In this document: piece by piece, positions 6,373-32,128 of the stretch
How the letters are laid out: each line of letters starts with the position of its first letter
Position numbering within the stretch: position 1 is the stretch's first letter
From: an uncultured bacterium
GTDB lineage: Bacteria; Actinomycetota; Actinomycetes; S36-B12
Assembly (NCBI GenBank): GCA_963793105.1
Contig: CAWBZB010000003.1
Coordinates: forward strand, 453,155-517,154
Length of the DNA stretch: 64,000 nucleotides
Reading direction: 5' to 3'
Made by a program: the position numbers and the translations under genes
Notes under the pieces: generated by a model
Databases searched by the model: none
Told to the model about the DNA's origin: nothing
Seen by the model: only the letters and a program-made list of their open reading frames with translations

Positions 6373-7110
6373 TCACAGCAATCGCTCCACGCGGCGCGCG
6401 ATGCGGCCGGTCCACCAGGTTCCCGCCGCCGTCAGGAGCACCCCGGCCAGCAGGCACGCTCGTCCCGGCACCGTGAACAGCAACCACGCGAGCGGATCCG
6501 AACCGAGCATGATCCCGAACCCGATGCCGAGCGCGGGCAGCAACGCCAGCAGGCGGGCGGTCGCGCGCGGCCCCGCCAGCTGCCCCTCGAGGTCCACCCG
6601 CACGTCCTCCGCCGCTCGGGCAGTGGCGGCCAGTCGCGTGACCGAGGCCGCCAGCCCGCTCCCGGACTCCGCCCCCACCTGCCAGCACGCGGACAGGTGC
6701 GCGAGCACCGGGTCCCGCCCGGCGTCCACGGCCAGCGCCGCGGCGACATCGCCGCCGGCTCGCGCGGCGCCGGCGGCCGACGGCCACACGGAGGGCTCAC
6801 CCCCTACCCGTCCTAGCGCGGCGCGGGGCGACTGGCCCACCTCGAGCTCGGCGGCCAGCGCCCCCAGGGCCTGGATCACGCGCACGCGCTCGGTGGCCCG
6901 TCTTCGGCGAGAGGCCGGTCCGAGCCCCACGCCCGCGACCAGCCGCGCGGACAGGAGTCGTCGGTGTTCGCGGAGCCTCTCCCGTCCCCCCACCTCGGCT
7001 CGCGACAGCTCCGCACCCGGCGTTCCGGTTCTGGGGCCCAGGCCAGCCAGCCGCCGGCCGCGATCATCACGATCGCCACCACTGCCAGAGCACCCACCTT
7101 GGGCCCTCAC
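6373..7110 (-). CDS. Type II secretion system F-domain protein (TadB-like)
   Basis: LAAELEVGQSP, WQVGAESGSGLA, AGPRATARLLALLP; coupled to cpaF. Confidence 0.85.
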   Translation of the reverse strand: MRAQGGCSGSGGDRDDRGRRLAGLGPRTGTPGAELSRAEVGGRERLREHRRLLSARLVAGVGLGPASRRRRATERVRVIQALGALAAELEVGQSPRAALGRVGGEPSVWPSAAGAARAGGDVAAALAVDAGRDPVLAHLSACWQVGAESGSGLAASVTRLAATARAAEDVRVDLEGQLAGPRATARLLALLPALGIGFGIMLGSDPLAWLLFTVPGRACLLAGVLLTAAGTWWTGRIARRVERLL

Positions 7111-8252
7111 TTCCGTGCCAGCAGATCGACGAGTTGCGGCCCACCCTCGTCGGCTGCCAGCCGCGCCCCTCGACGGGTGAACGCAGGCACCGTGCTCACC
7201 AGCCCGCTGTCCCCCCGGGCCAGCACATGAACGCCCGACACCACCCGGCGACCCGTCTCGTCGCGTCCCAGATGCATCACGACGTCGACGGCGGCGGCCA
7301 CCAGCGCATGCACCGCCATCCGATCGAGACCGGCGGCAAGTCCGAGAGCCTCGAGCCGGGCCGGGACGTCGGCCGCCGAGTTGGCATGCACGGTGCCCAT
7401 CCCGCCTTCGTGACCGGTGTTCATCGCCGCCAGCAGGTCCACGACCTCGGCACCGCGCACCTCCCCGAGCACCAGCCGGTCCGGACGCATGCGCAGGGCC
7501 TGTCGAACCAGGTCTCGGAGGGTGACGACGCCGGCCCCCTCGATGTTGGGCGTGCGCGCCTGCATGCGAACCACGTGACGATGTCGCGGCAGCAACTCGG
7601 TGGAGTCCTCCACGATCACTATCCGCTCACGCTCGTCCACCAGGCCGAGCAGCGTCGACAGGACGGTCGTCTTGCCGCTGCCCGTGCCGCCACTGATCAG
7701 GATGGCCAGGCGGGCTTCGACCAGGGTCCTCAGCAGCGCGGCCCCCTCCCGGTCGACGGATCCGCGCGCGATCAGCTCCTCCAGGGTGAATGCCTCCCGT
7801 GGAGGGACGCGCAGCGAGATCAACGTGCCGTCCACGGCGACCGGGGGGATGACGCAGTGCAGCCGGACACCGTCTGGCAGTCGGGCATCCACGAACGGCG
7901 CCGCCTCGTCGAGCCGGCGCCCAGCCGAGGTGGCGAGCCGCTGCGCGAGCCGGCGAACGTCGGTCTCGGTGCGAAAACGGACGTCCGTGAGCATCAGGCC
8001 CTCACCGCAGTCCACCCACACCTGTGACGGGCCGTTCACGATGACGTCGGTGACGTCCCGTCGACGGAGCAGCGGATCCAGCGGCCCTGCCCCGACCAGT
8101 TCCTGGCGCAAGGTTCCGACGAGCTCGAGGATCGCCGCATCGCCGAGCACCAGGCCCTCAGCGCGCAGTGCGGCGGCCACCCGGGCCGGCGTCGCGTCGC
8201 CGTCGTGCGCGACGAGCCTCGCGCGGACGCGCTCGACGAGGGCCGCGCTCAC
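7107..8252 (-). CDS. cpaF: TadA/CpaF pilus assembly ATPase
   Basis: GGTGSGKTT Walker A, ALRMRPDRLVLGEVRG, MNTGHEG; GTG start at 8252. Confidence 0.92.
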   Translation of the reverse strand: MSAALVERVRARLVAHDGDATPARVAAALRAEGLVLGDAAILELVGTLRQELVGAGPLDPLLRRRDVTDVIVNGPSQVWVDCGEGLMLTDVRFRTETDVRRLAQRLATSAGRRLDEAAPFVDARLPDGVRLHCVIPPVAVDGTLISLRVPPREAFTLEELIARGSVDREGAALLRTLVEARLAILISGGTGSGKTTVLSTLLGLVDERERIVIVEDSTELLPRHRHVVRMQARTPNIEGAGVVTLRDLVRQALRMRPDRLVLGEVRGAEVVDLLAAMNTGHEGGMGTVHANSAADVPARLEALGLAAGLDRMAVHALVAAAVDVVMHLGRDETGRRVVSGVHVLARGDSGLVSTVPAFTRRGARLAADEGGPQLVDLLARK

Positions 8253-9321
8253 GCGACACCGCCGGGCTTCGACGACACGATCGGAACGACCGCGGCGCAG
8301 GCTCGCCCGTAGCCGTCCCGCAGCGAGGGTCGGTCGCCGTCGTCCGCCCGCGCGACCAGTGCGACGGAGTAGGGCAGCCTCGCCACGACGGGCAGGCGCA
8401 ACGCTGACAGCACCGCGTCCCCATGCACGCCCTTCGCGTCGCTCCGCAGCACCAGTTCGAGGGACGTGCAACGAGACTCGAGCTCGGCGGACAGTCGGGC
8501 CGCAGCGGCGCAGGCCCGAACATGGTTGGCGGTCACGATCAGGGTGCGGTCGGCGCGGGCCAGCACGAGCTCCGTCATCGCGCCGAGGACCCTCGGGAGG
8601 TCGACGATGACGAGGTCGTAGCCGCGCACGCCGGCGTCGAGGACCGATCCGACCACTTCGCGCCGGCACGCTCGTGGTCCCGTCCCGCCCCCACGACAGC
8701 ACCGAGACGCCGCTCGACCTGCGGCAGGGCCTGGTCGAGAGCAGGCGCGCCCAGTCGTCCTCGCGCGTCCACGAGGTCGGCCCAGCGGATCCCCGCTGCG
8801 TCCTCCACGCCCAGCAGCACGTCCAGCCCGCCGGCGAGCGGGTCGGCGTCGACGAGCAGCACCCGCAGGGACCGACCGGCAGCCGCCAGCGCAAGCGTCG
8901 CCGCGAACGTCGAGGCTCCCGCGCCGCCGCCGGACCCGACGACCGCGAGTACCGAACCGTCGCGGGCCAGGCCCTCGCTGCTGTCCGCGAGTCGATCGAT
9001 CAGCCACCGTTCGCCGTCCGGGAGGGCGACGACGTGCTCGGCCCCGAGGGCGACCGCCCGTTGCCAGTCCTCGGCAGCCGGCTCCCGGGACAGGAGCACG
9101 ACGTCCCGGCGTCGCCCGAGCCCGGCACGGGCCATCCCCTCAGCCTGGTCGGCGCCGATCATCACCAGGGGAGACGCCTGCCAGCGGCCGCGGGCGCCCT
9201 CGGCGTCGGTCGCCAGGTGAACGTCCACGCCGTTGGCGGCGGCCAGCCGCAGCACGTCGTCGATGAGGTCCCCGTCACCGCTCACCAGCAGCGGCCGCAC
9301 CCCGTTCAGTGAACCCGTCAC
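8249..9321 (-). CDS. ssd: Septum site-determining protein Ssd (CpaE/MinD-like); two apparent single-base insertions near 8715 and 8660
   Basis: GSGGGAGASTFA, LVDADPLAGGLD, GIRWADL; continues across three frames (LPQV / SGVSVLSWGRDGTTSVPA / EVVGSVLDAG...DLVIVDLPR). Confidence 0.85.
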
Positions 9322-9463: not shown

Positions 9464-10306
9464 ATGACCGACGACGTCGCGCAGGACATCCCCGGAGAGG
9501 CCCTCGCCGGCGGTGCGCAGCCGCCGCACGCCGCCGCGTTCTTCGACCTCGACAAGACGATCCTGGCGAAGTCGAGTTCCTTCGCCTTCGCGCGGCCCTT
9601 CTACAAGGAGGGCTTGATCGGCCGTAGCGACGTGATCCGCAGCGCGTACGCCCAGTTCGTGTACCTGGCGTCGGGCGCGGACCACGACCAGATGGAGACC
9701 ATGCGCGAGTACATGTCCAAGCTGGTCACCGGCTGGGAGGTCGAGAAGGTCCAGGCAATCGTCGGCGAGACGCTCGACGACATCGTCGACCCGATGGTCT
9801 ACGAGGAGGCGGTGCTCCTCATCGCGGAGCACAAGGCGGCCGGCCGGGACGTCATCATCATCTCCTCGTCGGGAACGGACGTCGTCGAGCCGATCGGGCA
9901 GCGGCTGGGCGCCGACCTCGCGATCGGCACGCAGGTCAAGATCGAGGACGGCGAGTACACCGGCGAGATCCTCTTCTACGCCTACGGCGAGGGCAAGGCC
10001 GAGGCCATGCGCACGCTCGCCGAGGAGCGCGGCTACGACCTCGCCGACTCGTACGCCTACACCGACTCGCACACCGACCTGCCGATGCTCGAGGTTGTGG
10101 GCCACCCGGTGGCCGTCAACCCCGATTCCGAGCTGCGGAAGATCGCCGCGGAGCGAGGGTGGCCGATGAGCGACTTCGCCAAGCCGGTGGCGATGCGCGA
10201 GCAGGCGACGAAGCGACAGGCCCTTGCGGCGGGCGCGGGAGTGGCGTTGAGCGCCGTGGCCCTGGGCATCACCTGGTACGCGCGCCGACGCGGTCCCCGC
10301 CCCTGA
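9464..10306 (+). CDS. HAD-IB family hydrolase (Rv3661/SsgB-CicA-like)
   Basis: AAFFDLDKT motif I, AYTDSHTDLPML motif, C-terminal TM helix; TACCGT-N6-ATG leaderless-type start. Confidence 0.9.
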   Translation: MTDDVAQDIPGEALAGGAQPPHAAAFFDLDKTILAKSSSFAFARPFYKEGLIGRSDVIRSAYAQFVYLASGADHDQMETMREYMSKLVTGWEVEKVQAIVGETLDDIVDPMVYEEAVLLIAEHKAAGRDVIIISSSGTDVVEPIGQRLGADLAIGTQVKIEDGEYTGEILFYAYGEGKAEAMRTLAEERGYDLADSYAYTDSHTDLPMLEVVGHPVAVNPDSELRKIAAERGWPMSDFAKPVAMREQATKRQALAAGAGVALSAVALGITWYARRRGPRP

Positions 10307-10343
10307 CCGCCGACCCCCTGCGACCCGAACCGCCGACCCCGAA

Positions 10344-10410
10344 CCGCCGAGCCCTGCAGCAAGCCGCAACAAGAAGGACCGGTGGTCCCGACTGCTGCAG
10401 GGCTCGGCGG
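10344..10410. repeat. REP-like hairpin, family 1, copy A
   Basis: Perfect 18-bp inverted repeat CCGCCGAGCCCTGCAGCA / TGCTGCAGGGCTCGGCGG; shares sequence with 11410-11474. Confidence 0.85.
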
Positions 10411-10419
10411 AATCTCGGG

Positions 10420-11331
10420 CTATAGCCGTGCCCGCAGTCGATCGGCCAGCGCCGGACCGGCCAGATCCCTCCAGCCCCAGCGCAGGACCTGCAGGCCCGC
10501 CGCCCGGAGATCGTCCTCGCGCCGCTTCTCCGCGTAGAGGGCCTCCGGGTCGTCGTACTTCAGCCGGCCGTCGCACTCCCCGACCAGCCTGACGTGGTCC
10601 CAGTAGAAGTCCACCCGGCCGAGGAGCCGACCGCCGACCCCGCGCACCTCGACCTGCATGCGGGGCAGCGGCAGGTCATGCCGCACGAAGTAGGCCCAGG
10701 ACCCGGACTCGAGCACCGACTCCCGCAAGGCGTCCACATGCTCCAGGGCCACGGCAGCCCGACGACAGCCACGCATGCCCGCGGCAGCCACCACGTACGA
10801 CGCTAGGTCCTCGAACCGCGCTGCACCCCCGCGCAGGGCGGCGTCCCCAGCCGACAGCGCGTCGGACAGCGGGCGGGTCCGGGCGATGTCGAACCAGGTC
10901 CTCGCGGGCGAGGTGAGAGCCACGCCCTCATCGATGATGTCCGCGACGCCCAGGTCCAGTTCCCGGAAGCTGACTCCGCTGCGCCGGCCCGACCACTGCC
11001 CGGGTGGGACGAGCAGAGTCACCCTCGACGGCACCCCCGTGAACAACGGGAGGCCGTGGAGCAGCGCCGCGCTCTCGTAGCCGACCACGGCGTCGGGGTT
11101 GCGTCGGGCGGCCGCGACCACTCGATGGACGTGATCCAGCCGCGCCCGAGCGAAGGCGTCGAACCCGACGGGCGCCCAGTCCGTGCTCCGATAGGCGTCC
11201 CGTGCCAGGCGCTCCCACCGGCCGGAGGCGACGCGGTACCTCGCCTGATCCGCGCTGAGGCCGGTCTCGACGGCGGCAGCCAGAGGGAACACCGTCGGCA
11301 GTGGCGGATCGGCTCCCAGGCGTCGTGGCAT
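10420..11331 (-). CDS. AbiEi-like N-terminal domain + DUF559/Vsr-like endonuclease-fold protein
   Basis: GLSADQARYRVASGRWERLARDAY, GYESAALLHGL, TSPARTWFDIAR, ESVLES, RVDFYW...VGECDGRLKY...EKRREDDLRAAGLQVLRW. Confidence 0.75.
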   Translation of the reverse strand: MPRRLGADPPLPTVFPLAAAVETGLSADQARYRVASGRWERLARDAYRSTDWAPVGFDAFARARLDHVHRVVAAARRNPDAVVGYESAALLHGLPLFTGVPSRVTLLVPPGQWSGRRSGVSFRELDLGVADIIDEGVALTSPARTWFDIARTRPLSDALSAGDAALRGGAARFEDLASYVVAAAGMRGCRRAAVALEHVDALRESVLESGSWAYFVRHDLPLPRMQVEVRGVGGRLLGRVDFYWDHVRLVGECDGRLKYDDPEALYAEKRREDDLRAAGLQVLRWGWRDLAGPALADRLRARL

Positions 11332-11409
11332 GGCGTCACGATGCAGCGCGCGGCGGGCGGTGGCGCTCGGGATGTCGCTCCGGTGGATGGCTGCCACGGC
11401 CCTGTGGAT

Positions 11410-11474
11410 CGCCGACCCCTGCACCAATCGGGGCCAACGGGCACCGGTGGTCCCGATTGGTGCAGGGGTCGGCG
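11410..11474. repeat. REP-like hairpin, family 1, copy B
   Basis: Perfect 23-bp inverted repeat CGCCGACCCCTGCACCAATCGGG / CCCGATTGGTGCAGGGGTCGGCG. Confidence 0.85.
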
Positions 11475-11491
11475 GAAGGCGGGGCGGGCAG

Positions 11492-12263
11492 TCAGGGGAC
11501 GGTGACGGCTCGGGCGCCCAGGGCGAACGCGGTCGCCTGCCACACGATGAACTCCGACACCCCGGCGCGGGAGCCCGACCGCATACGCCCGCAGGGCCTG
11601 TACATAGGCCGGGCGGCCGAGCTCGAGCATGCCGTGCTCCGGGATGCTGAACAGCGACGGGTCGACCCCGCGGCCGGCGAGAACCAGGCGCGTCGTCGCC
11701 CGCGCCAGCAGACCGGACCCCCAGGCGAACGGCCGCAGGACCGCCACCTCCCCGTGGGCGATCGCCGCCACCACGAGCGCCGGCGCCTGCGTGGGCGCGG
11801 TCAGGGTGCGGGCCAGCAGCGCGAGCCGGTCCGCGGCGGCGGCCGCCGGCACGACGGGACCGAGGTTCAGTGGATCGTCGGCGGTGTCCACCCGGCGTGG
11901 TCGGCCCAAGCCTTCGGACGGCTCGAATCCCGTCGCCGTCAGGGCGTGCAGGTGCGCGAGGGCCTGCAGCGGGGCTCGCGAGAAGACGTCCACCTGCGTC
12001 GGGACGGCCGCCGTCAGCCTGAGCGCGGCATCCAGCACGCGGCCCATCGGGGACTCGTCGGGGAGCACGAGGTCGGCGCCGTCGATGGCCGCGGAGTCGC
12101 GGGCTCCACGCTGGATCGACGCAGACGCCACCTCCGCCGCCGCACCGCGCACGTCGCGCCGCCACAGCAGCGCGTCGATCTCCTCCCTGGCCGCGAGGAC
12201 GGCGGCCGCCACCGTCTCGTCGGCGGCGAGGACGGCGAGGGGGTCACTCCGGGTCTCGGACAC
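11492..12263 (-). CDS. Fic/Fido-like conserved protein (Rv3662c family); apparent +1 frameshift near 11580
   Basis: PLQALAHLH, AAIAHGEVAVLRPFAWGSGLLARA (degenerate Fic motif); removing one G gives ...YASGSRAGVSEFIVWQATAFALGARAVTVP-stop at 11492. Confidence 0.7.
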
Positions 12264-12302
12264 AGCCCCCATCTAACCGACTGCTTTGGTTCACTAGTGA
12301 TC

Positions 12303-14285
<1,983 letters not shown>

Positions 14286-23191: not shown

Positions 23192-23199
23192 CACCCCTT

Positions 23200-23287
23200 C
23201 GTTGAGTGGTCGCTGGCGCACGCCGCGGCTGGCTGGCGGAGGTGCACGAGCGACCACTCGACGGGAAGGCGGAGCGACCACTCAACG
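23200..23287. repeat. REP-like hairpin, family 2, copy A plus a partial extra arm
   Basis: CGTTGAGTGGTCGCTGGCGCAC-N20-GTGCACGAGCGACCACTCGACG (23200-23263); extra GAGCGACCACTCAACG at 23272-23287. Confidence 0.8.
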
Positions 23288-31171: not shown

Positions 31172-32056
31172 ATGCGCAGAACCACGAGGGTCCTGGCGGG
31201 TACCGCTGCCGCGGGTGTCGCCGGACTGGCCTACGCCTACTGGGAGGCCTCGGCGTTCACGCTGCGCCGGGTGACGGCGACGGTGCTTCCGGCCGGGCAG
31301 CGGGACCTGCGGATCCTGCACGTGTCCGACCTCCACCTCGTGCCGGGGCAGCGCAAGAAGCAGGACTGGGTGCGCTCGCTGTCGGAACTGCGGCCGGATG
31401 CCGTCATCGTCACCGGAGACTTCCTCTCGCACCCCGACGCCGTGCCGCATGTGCTCGACACCCTGGATCCGCTGTTCGACGTGCCCGGAGCGTTCGTTCT
31501 CGGCAGCAACGACTACTACGCACCCCGTCCGCTCAACTGGGCGAGATACCTCAACGGACCGTCCCAGCTCGAGCCGAATCGTCCGATGCTGCCGTGGGAG
31601 GATCTCGTCGACGGGCTCACGACCAACGGCTGGCTCGACCTCGGCAACACGCGCGCGACCATGAAGGTTGACGGGCGCGAGATCGACGTGCGCGGAGTGG
31701 ACGACCCGCACATCAGCCGCGACCGGTACGACCAGGTCGCCGGCCCGTTCGACCCCGCTGCGGATCTCGCCCTGGGCGTGACGCACGCGCCGTACCTGCG
31801 GGTGCTGGACGCCATGGCCGCCGACGGCGCCGACCTGGTGCTGGCCGGCCACACGCACGGGGGGCAGCTGTGCGTCCCCGGGGTCGGAGCCCTGGTGACG
31901 AACTGCGACCTGCCGCGCACGCAGGCCAAGGGCCTGTCGTCGCACGACGGCGCCGCCCTGCACGTGTCCGCCGGCCTCGGGACGTCCCCCTACGCACCCG
32001 TGCGCTTCGCCTGCCGCCCTGAGGCGACCCTGCTCACCCTCACGCCTTCTCGTTGA
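31172..32056 (+). CDS. Metallophosphoesterase (Rv3683-like)
   Basis: SDLH, TGD, GSNDY, AGHTHGGQ, SAGLGTS. Confidence 0.9.
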   Translation: MRRTTRVLAGTAAAGVAGLAYAYWEASAFTLRRVTATVLPAGQRDLRILHVSDLHLVPGQRKKQDWVRSLSELRPDAVIVTGDFLSHPDAVPHVLDTLDPLFDVPGAFVLGSNDYYAPRPLNWARYLNGPSQLEPNRPMLPWEDLVDGLTTNGWLDLGNTRATMKVDGREIDVRGVDDPHISRDRYDQVAGPFDPAADLALGVTHAPYLRVLDAMAADGADLVLAGHTHGGQLCVPGVGALVTNCDLPRTQAKGLSSHDGAALHVSAGLGTSPYAPVRFACRPEATLLTLTPSR

Positions 32057-32114
32057 GTGGTCGCTCGTGCACCGGCCCGGGGCTCTGCGGACGTGCAGGA
32101 GCGCCCACTCAACG
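32051..32114. repeat. REP-like hairpin, family 2, copy B
   Basis: CGTTGAGTGGTCGCTCGTGCAC-N20-GTGCAGGAGCGCCCACTCAACG; same 64-nt length as copy A. Confidence 0.8.
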
Positions 32115-32128
32115 AAGGGAGGGGAGGG

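Follow-up and report, generated by a model that had tools for sequence, protein, structure and literature searches.

The DNA analyzed here (hereafter the window) is a 64,000-nt stretch of contig C3 (positions 453155-517154) from the draft genome of an uncultured actinomycete, which comprises 3.16 Mb in 18 contigs with ∼69.5% G+C, is 95.85% complete, and is designated G000 (G, C, and L numbers denote genomes, contigs, and loci, respectively). At one locus of the window, U1, a single nuclease gene is bracketed by two copies of a long palindrome, h1 and h2, which belong to the same dispersed family (F1), and this pairing of one gene with its own palindrome family recurs elsewhere in this genome and in others. 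The nuclease gene (10420-11331, minus strand) is the only open reading frame (ORF) between the palindromes and encodes a 303-aa protein, P0001, for which the translation and an AlphaFold model indicate an AbiEi-like winged-helix and middle domain (residues ∼3-200) followed by a Vsr/DUF559-like domain (residues ∼203-303). The palindrome h1 (10344-10411), the inner left arm of which is decayed, lies 8 nt past the stop codon of this gene, and h2 (11409-11476) lies 78 nt upstream of its start codon. On the h1 side the nuclease gene is convergent with a HAD-family hydrolase gene (9464-10306, plus strand; stop codon 10304-10306; Pfam PF12710, E = 8e-34), and on the h2 side its neighbor is a gene (11492-12272, minus strand) that was labeled Rv3662c-like in an earlier note made from the letters of this DNA (the sequence-only reading). 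Because the true stop codon of the Rv3662c-like gene is at 11492-11494, 16 nt from h2, U1 occupies the entire gap between two convergent stop codons.

Both palindromes are predicted to form very stable hairpins. The region around h1 (10335-10420) folds at -55.4 kcal/mol (z = -6.7) and that around h2 (11400-11485) at -77.3 kcal/mol (z = -11.1), and none of 200 shuffled sequences folded as well in either case. The arms extend over 18 bp in h1 (10346-10363 with 10390-10407) and at least 23 bp in h2, and a 33-mer common to the two has exactly two matches in the window, with zero expected from 100 shuffles. The sequence-only reading was thus correct in describing two hairpins around a lone 303-aa gene; its statement that they share the same orientation cannot be established, as the element is a near-perfect palindrome with asymmetry only in the decayed inner left arm of h1. 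Directly beside several palindromes, as if the edge of the element had stuttered, the outermost 10-14 nt of the arm recur two or three times in tandem as partial copies; such sites occur in the window at 10309-10343 (partial copies beginning CCGCCGACCCC, between the HAD stop codon and h1), and at L003:1435-1466, G000:C8:61601-61660, and L028:2595-2640.

A search of the whole G000 genome with an nhmmer profile, built from the first BLAST matches, identified F1 at 15 sites scoring 33-68 bits, separated by a clean gap from the next match (11 bits). These include h1 (C3:463498-463565, 59.3 bits) and h2 (C3:464563-464630, 65.3 bits), and the remaining 13 copies are orphans, located far from the nuclease gene. 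All 15 copies adjoin the end of a gene, and 8 of them lie between convergent genes. Four paralogues of P0001 were found in the same genome by tblastn, and folding of their flanking DNA revealed long hairpins on both sides of three, with sequences unlike F1; by BLAST, these also proved to be dispersed families. A strict de novo scan of G000 returned 97 palindromes, which fell into clusters of 25, 20, 6, and 4, corresponding to the four families, one cluster of 2, and 40 singletons that look like ordinary terminators. Profile searches brought the families to 15 (F1), 26 (F2), 28 (F3), and 31 (F4) copies, for a total of 100, with palindromes of 58-68 nt and 13-29 orphans per family.

Each of the four full-length members of the gene family is bracketed by two copies of one palindrome family, and the family differs from gene to gene: U1 with F1 (C3:463498-464630, inner gap 997 nt), U2 with F2 (C4:110522-111712, 1064 nt), U3 with F3 (C8:427871-428997, 997 nt), and U4 with F4 (C15:20145-21254, 994 nt). 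Each of these ∼1.1 kb units contains one ORF, which ends 0-46 nt ahead of the downstream palindrome. The two flanking copies of F2 are each other's closest relatives, at 98.5% identity. Among all 100 copies, the only same-family neighbors less than 1.5 kb apart are the four unit pairs; random placement yielded 0.54 such pairs on average, with at least four arising in 35 of 20,000 trials, and this test does not even require a member of one gene family to lie inside every pair. The copies are unevenly distributed with respect to genes, as judged from a rough gene annotation (2467 ORFs selected on their G+C content at third positions): 50 of the 100 lie between convergent genes, compared with 433 of 2449 spacers (18%) genome-wide, only 4 lie between divergent genes (also 18% genome-wide), and 96 adjoin at least one gene 3′ end. 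The Y1/RAYT transposase family PF01797 has no match in G000, at its 95.85% completeness.

The structure of P0001 was modeled by AlphaFold from 14 orthologues (pLDDT 91.7, pTM 0.87) and compared with solved structures by VIA-align and Foldseek. Residues 203-303 align best with the catalytic domain of the homing endonuclease I-Bth0305I (3r3p; Z = 11.1, rmsd 2.2 Å, 89 residues aligned), followed by the DUF559 protein NGO0050 (3hrl; Z = 10.8, rmsd 2.5 Å, 85 residues) and Vsr (1cw0; Z = 9.9, rmsd 2.2 Å, 94 residues), and residues 3-200 align with AbiEi (6y8q; Z = 10.0 over 179 residues, rmsd 6.2 Å). In Foldseek, Rv2827c and AbiEi rank first, with 1zel as the top match (E = 8.5e-6). Six residues, E204, E208, D241, E252, D254, and K258, are invariant in the 14 orthologues. 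P0001 models as an AbiEi-like DNA-binding part fused to a Vsr/DUF559-like PD-(D/E)xK nuclease. By sequence, P0001 falls below the Pfam cut-offs for DUF559 (PF04480; 13.7 vs. 20.6 bits) and AbiEi_4 (17.6 vs. 25 bits), while the U2, U3, and U4 proteins exceed the DUF559 cut-off (22.0, 30.4, and 25.4 bits, respectively). None of the four unit proteins matched an NCBIfam family, and a profile of the 14 orthologues matched no PDB chain by sequence at E values up to 1. The relatives are named in public records as “very-short-patch-repair endonuclease,” “hypothetical protein,” or “AbiEi family antitoxin domain-containing protein.”

Of 41 genomes searched at the protein level, 37 contain the family, including 24 of 24 from the same genus, with 1-12 matches each. 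The closest relatives of P0001 (45-56% identity) have the same pair of neighbors in all 11 loci compared and in G018, G004, and G019. In 10 of the 11 loci the HAD protein is 78-88% identical (L006-L015; L016 ends before this gene), and in 10 the Rv3662c-like protein is 72-84% identical (L009 ends before it); with neighbors at 72-88% identity, the nuclease gene therefore evolves much faster than its surroundings. Long hairpins, judged by eye, are present in 8 of 9 foldable spacers on the HAD side and in 9 of 9 on the other side, and their sequences are species-specific, although many contain CCTGCAG...GCGTCAC. BLAST searches with h2 against G002, G017, G001, G005, and G014 returned nothing, which, for the three of these genomes that bear an orthologue, shows only that the palindrome sequence differs. 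In G007 (L008, G007:C32:137974-141882), the orientation of the nuclease gene is reversed with respect to both neighbors, and the palindromes on its two sides share an identical sequence of 61 nt, which suggests recombination between the palindromes.

The content of this junction is otherwise variable. In G017 it is empty, with the two neighbors separated by 32 nt and neither gene nor palindrome between them. A gene for a zinc-dependent alcohol dehydrogenase (ADH)-like protein takes the place of the unit in G002 (L017:448-1494) and occurs in addition to it in G013 (L006:381-1421), and another neighbor gene is present in G010 and G020. In G015, a 255-aa ORF (L007:566-1445) that encodes a RebB “killing trait” domain (PF11747, E = 4e-15) is enclosed by two palindromes, next to the nuclease unit. 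Since the ADH gene follows HAD in two species, the junction can be regarded as a hot spot for variable content; the unit has therefore been gained or lost whole, yet is old at this site. The proposal in the sequence-only reading of an inserted unit accordingly holds in part: the unit is present or absent as a whole, and the empty junction that the reading anticipated exists in G017, but the gene is a long-term resident of the HAD/Rv3662c-like junction in 14 congeneric genomes and not a recent insertion. In this respect it resembles the vertical inheritance of RAYT genes more than a hopping cassette.

The layout also recurs at other sites and in other taxa. Away from the HAD junction, five members of the same subfamily were compared: matched palindrome pairs enclose four of them (G013:C1, G013:C9, G008:C57, and G021:C4), and the fifth, a degraded copy in G007:C2, has no palindromes. 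At G013:C1, 14 nt separate the upstream palindrome from the first codon of a divergently oriented gene, so that this palindrome is not at a gene 3′ end. In G018, a complete congeneric genome, matched pairs flank 9 of the 11 loci with a paralogue, and the pairs differ in sequence from locus to locus; the two families tested have 5 and 9 orphans, and their flanking copies are 93 and 97% identical and are each other's closest relatives. A broader scan with one genome per species covered 80 loci from many Actinomycetota (named records include Rhodococcus, Cellulomonas, Jatrophihabitans, Pseudonocardiales, Nocardioidaceae, and Streptosporangiaceae), using a strict palindrome detector within 400 nt upstream or 300 nt downstream of the gene. 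Palindromes were detected upstream in 31 loci, downstream in 38, and on both sides in 19, where the two usually belonged to one family, and only two other strict palindromes occurred in the remaining 294,693 nt of these loci. In Cellulomonas triticagri, the family consists of the two flanking copies and three orphans. At G000:C8:61601-61720, an F4 palindrome with tandem partial arms lies directly downstream of groEL, and the site downstream of groEL in G013 carries a nuclease unit of another subfamily. The two genes that flank the unit at the DMGDH-like/GroEL locus in G013 and G007 are on different contigs in G000.

Palindrome sequence tends to follow the clade of the adjacent gene. Of 35 palindromes next to genes for proteins with ≥44% identity to P0001, 15 contain the motif CTGCAG, compared with 1 of 29 beside more distant proteins, at a background rate of 0.036 per 60 nt. 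Across 12 units from two genomes, protein identity is correlated with arm similarity (Mantel r = 0.37, p = 0.002). The sister species G002 carries F2 at 27 sites, and a paralogue (C13:424544-425224) is enclosed by copies at two of them; no F1 copy was found in this genome (83% complete), in which the best match to P0001 reaches only E = 6e-22.

Orphan copies are gained or lost between closely related genomes, as both sites compared between G000 and G002 differ in palindrome presence. At C3:345797, the spacer is 107 nt with an F1 copy in G000, and 27, 39, and 3 nt in G002, G001, and G044, respectively. The same spacer is 64 nt in G013, with a palindrome of an F4-like family, and contains insertions of other sequence in G005 (741 nt) and G003 (623 nt); five further loci in this comparison lacked one flank. 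At C8:298173, the spacer is ∼29 nt in G002 and ∼240 nt, including a palindrome, in G000. Complementarity beyond the palindrome core averages 1.0 nt vs. 0.64 nt in controls, a weak effect. Insertion into pre-existing stems was considered and dropped, as the extended complementarity is modest in F2 and F4 and absent in F1 and F3.

A recurrent motif, CTGTGGA(Y), is found in either orientation beside the upstream palindrome in 13 of 14 upstream regions, including that of G000, where CTGTGGA (11402-11408) lies between h2 and the nuclease start codon. Its distance to the start codon is mostly 49-58 nt, with -77 in G000 and second sites at -30 and -89, and it could be a promoter or operator element. 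In most relatives, TTGC occurs ∼10 nt after it. A scan of the U1 region for promoter consensus sequences found no sites. An intrinsic-terminator consensus scan returned nothing for h2 and, for h1, only a 5-6-bp inner stem with a T-rich tail on the minus strand; the stems are without the subsequent T/U run of an intrinsic terminator. In the decayed half of h1 (10375-10392, minus strand), a small stem is followed by TCTTGTT on the sense strand of the nuclease gene, and this is the sole terminator-like match in the region. A search of Rfam in E-value mode (9500-12500) found only microRNA-precursor look-alikes, far under the gathering scores.

The comparisons establish the architecture, the assignment of one family to each gene, its recurrence across genomes and taxa, the gain and loss of orphans, the protein fold, and the conserved acidic and lysine residues. 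We consider it very probable that gene and palindrome are connected in a functional and specific manner. With somewhat better than even confidence, we favor a system resembling REPIN/RAYT with an unrelated enzyme, in which the nuclease would spread or maintain its palindromes. The winged-helix part may recognize both arms of its own palindrome family, and the nuclease may nick or cut at, or adjoining, the palindrome. Host repair or replication would then copy palindromes into new intergenic sites, and could also homogenize, invert, or delete the DNA between neighboring copies, while the gene itself would remain mostly stationary and be inherited vertically, as has been described for RAYTs. Palindrome pairs do appear to drive local rearrangement, as in the G007 inversion and the variable content of the HAD junction. 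From comparative sequence data we infer the binding specificity, the cleavage, and the nuclease-driven spread. The sequence-only reading had proposed a REP-like system with a Vsr-like nuclease, as opposed to an HUH transposase or a type IV antitoxin, and this proposal is supported, as each of its suggested checks that was carried out turned out in its favor: 13 of the 15 F1 copies are located elsewhere in the genome, hairpins generally flank the homologous genes, hairpin families are specific to individual paralogues or clades, an empty junction exists in G017, the protein combines an AbiEi-like with a Vsr/DUF559-like fold, and no AbiEii toxin gene is adjacent, as borne out by the unit ORFs and the Pfam matches of the neighbors. 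The action of the nuclease on the hairpins, also part of that proposal, is likewise inferred.

Several observations weigh against this interpretation. Support for the nuclease acting on palindromes is comparative throughout, and we know of no hydrolytic PD-(D/E)xK nuclease that transposes alone, or of a worked-out chemistry by which one would copy a palindrome. Copy numbers, at 5-31, are far under those of typical REPIN populations. Within G000, a partial fifth paralogue (C3:149938) is without hairpins, the start codon of U2 is ambiguous, and the U4 protein is ∼64 N-terminal residues shorter than that of U3, yet F4 is the largest family (31 copies). Two of the 11 loci in G018 (both partial matches) are without pairs, as are 30 of the 80 loci in the broader scan, in which no strict palindrome was found on either side. 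The correlation between protein and arm similarity is not significant within G018 alone (r = 0.35, p = 0.066), and co-divergence of gene and arms is likewise expected from simple duplication of whole units. Neither a target-site duplication nor a conserved target is visible on comparison of occupied and empty sites, the former because the spacers are too diverged. Finally, the sequence-only reading took differences between the h1 and h2 arms to be compensatory and to imply selection on structure, a claim that fails for F1: pairing over the 15 copies is 78.7%, compared with 78.3% when the 3′ partners are shuffled (206 of 500 shuffles are as high), and the S/S positions cited in that reading are unpaired in 5-7 of the 15 copies. 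The F1 arms therefore resemble a motif repeated in inverted orientation more than a selected stem. In F2, F3, and F4, pairing is in excess, with only 3, 0, and 0 of 500 shuffles, respectively, reaching the observed value; some copies are perfect palindromes through the center, which fits a symmetry process at the DNA level as well as selection on an RNA stem.

Among the alternatives, the one that best survives, although we consider it unlikely, is that of a selfish gene that homes into palindromes. Here, the palindromes would spread by other means, the nuclease would cut the center of its cognate palindrome, and repair from a palindrome-gene-palindrome donor would insert the gene and restore complete palindromes at both of its ends. 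Among solved structures, the nearest fold is indeed the catalytic domain of a homing endonuclease (3r3p), the gene is found at different loci in different genomes with two complete palindromes at four of the five other loci (the degraded G007:C2 copy being the exception), the unit is wholly present or absent at the HAD junction, and the inverted gene between identical palindromes in G007 is what symmetric arms would allow. However, only one gene copy exists per family while 13-29 orphan targets are unoccupied in the same genome, and the gene is stable at one junction in 14 congeners; moreover, the spread of the palindromes themselves is left unexplained.

A more improbable explanation involves no mobility at all, with P0001 as an AbiEi-like regulator, the upstream inverted repeat as its operator, and the downstream copy and orphans serving to terminate transcription or to provide additional binding sites. 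The antitoxin AbiEi binds to inverted repeats within the promoter of its own operon, the first 200 residues of P0001 are modeled with a similar fold (6y8q), and the position of 96 of 100 copies at a gene 3′ end, with 50 between convergent genes, would suit terminators. This does not account for the presence of the same family on both flanks, for a separate dispersed family per paralogue, for the gain and loss of orphans between sister species, or for the invariant nuclease residues, and the hairpins are without U-tracts apart from the weak terminator-like match inside h1. We give slightly less credence still to the ∼1.1 kb unit as a transposon, the orphans of which would be remnants left after end-to-end recombination deleted the gene, in the manner of solo long terminal repeats (LTRs). 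The flanking copies can recombine, as the G007 inversion shows, and they are mutually closest in F2 and in the two G018 families; yet no solo palindrome persists where the unit is missing from the HAD junction (G017, G002), no relative has a unit at the two orphan sites tested, and the G000 orphans would need ∼100 past gene insertions, nearly all since lost. That abundant intergenic palindromes flank the gene by coincidence can practically be dismissed: although the 100 palindromes of the genome are sometimes clustered (17 neighboring pairs are less than 5 kb apart), four of four same-family pairs at ∼1 kb hold a paralogue of one gene family, and recurrence of the layout in other genomes and taxa already contradicts this explanation. 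An integron attC-like identity, considered given that F3 ends in GTTGAGT...ACTCAAC, was also rejected, as the core sites are in the wrong order; no search for an integrase was made.

To our knowledge, no short bacterial repeats other than REP/REPIN elements with their RAYTs are established as having a dedicated enzyme that is maintained by vertical inheritance. A REPIN/RAYT-like system built on a nuclease would, if confirmed, be a second, independent case with a different enzyme fold, meaning that the arrangement has evolved more than once. It would also provide a testable function for many actinobacterial DUF559, Vsr-like, and orphan AbiEi antitoxin proteins, and it would account for species-specific palindromes at gene ends in high-GC genomes. 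The gene-palindrome system would be undescribed, and may spread itself. A bolder generalization, to which we give slightly less than even odds, is that Actinomycetota hold widespread, unrecognized intragenomic replicators, namely families of ∼60-nt palindromes each maintained and spread by its own single-copy AbiEi-winged-helix/Vsr-like nuclease, through a chemistry unrelated to that of known transposases (nuclease-triggered, repair-mediated copying). In that case, many annotations in the phylum as “DUF559,” “very-short-patch-repair endonuclease,” or orphan “AbiEi antitoxin” would denote the enzymes of such systems. A full-text literature search with little coverage of subscription journals turned up no paper that connects palindromes, whether flanking or dispersed, with DUF559, Vsr-like, or AbiEi_4 proteins, and none that deals with RAYTs of Actinobacteria.

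Other features of the window include two orphan copies of F3, the cognate nuclease gene of which is on contig C8, at 23199-23263 (C3:476353-476417, 47.4 bits by nhmmer) and 32050-32115 (C3:485204-485269, 57.6 bits). The Rv3662c-like gene has no Pfam family at E = 0.001 and an apparent frameshift near 11560-11567. At its 3′ end (11492-11570, minus strand), the frame of residues 1-237 continues through the hairpin, and the other frame gives AGVSEFIVWQATAFALGARAVTVP and then a stop, matching the C-terminus in G002; the change of frame is either a true frameshift or an assembly error. Upstream of the HAD gene (7107-9321) are an ORF for a Tad-type secretion ATPase and a ParA/MinD-like gene (CbiA, PF01656), and this order agrees with a conserved actinobacterial gene order alluded to in the sequence-only reading. 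In public sequencing runs, the best matches contained at most 0.39 of the sampled words, all as low-depth Logan contigs, and four of them gave fragmentary cover; one joint in these data (10200 to 11771) is unreliable, with a 23-nt side in a single contig, and nothing was concluded from it.

The individual components of U1 have counterparts in several known systems. Residues 3-200 are modeled with a fold like that of the type IV AbiE antitoxin AbiEi (including Rv2827c), but here no AbiEii nucleotidyltransferase is adjacent, with one ORF per unit and a HAD gene and a gene without a Pfam family as neighbors, and a nuclease domain is fused at the C-terminus. Residues 203-303 share the fold of the Vsr/DUF559/I-Bth0305I clade, and the U2-U4 proteins pass the Pfam cut-off for DUF559; VSR, DUF559, and DUF2726 are grouped with these PD-(D/E)xK structures in a published table (PMC3424549, Table 1). 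Vsr functions as a nickase in mismatch repair, and I-Bth0305I in the homing of an intron; neither is described with dispersed cognate palindromes. The mycobacterial TRIT elements are conserved, dispersed terminator hairpins at gene 3′ ends in a high-GC actinobacterium, for which we know of no description of a cognate flanked gene.

Some insertion sequences use REP elements as targets; they interrupt the REP into which they insert, and their transposases are of ordinary types, whereas here two complete palindromes flank a nuclease gene. Such insertion sequences are likewise mobile genes physically tied to intergenic palindromes (PMC1525189). In the IS200/IS605 group, the gene is also bounded by palindromes, which are imperfect and recognized by its own enzyme (PMC3116915); that enzyme is a Y1 transposase acting on single-stranded DNA, whereas no such gene is present here and the flanks are full palindromes of 58-68 nt that also exist as orphans. 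The closest likeness is to REPIN/RAYT, in which short palindromic repeats are likewise scattered through intergenic regions, most of them beyond the 3′ ends of genes, copies of the repeat lie on both sides of its single-copy cognate gene (as in all four G000 units and 9 of 11 G018 loci), several distinct gene/repeat pairs can share a genome, and the gene is described as vertically resident. The RAYTs of a multi-RAYT genome are each distinctive and single copy (PMC3116915). The system described here differs in its host phylum, Actinomycetota, in having 5-31 copies instead of hundreds, and in an enzyme that is not an HUH/Y1 transposase; its architecture matches the defining traits of REPIN/RAYT (PMC3116915) in all but the enzyme.

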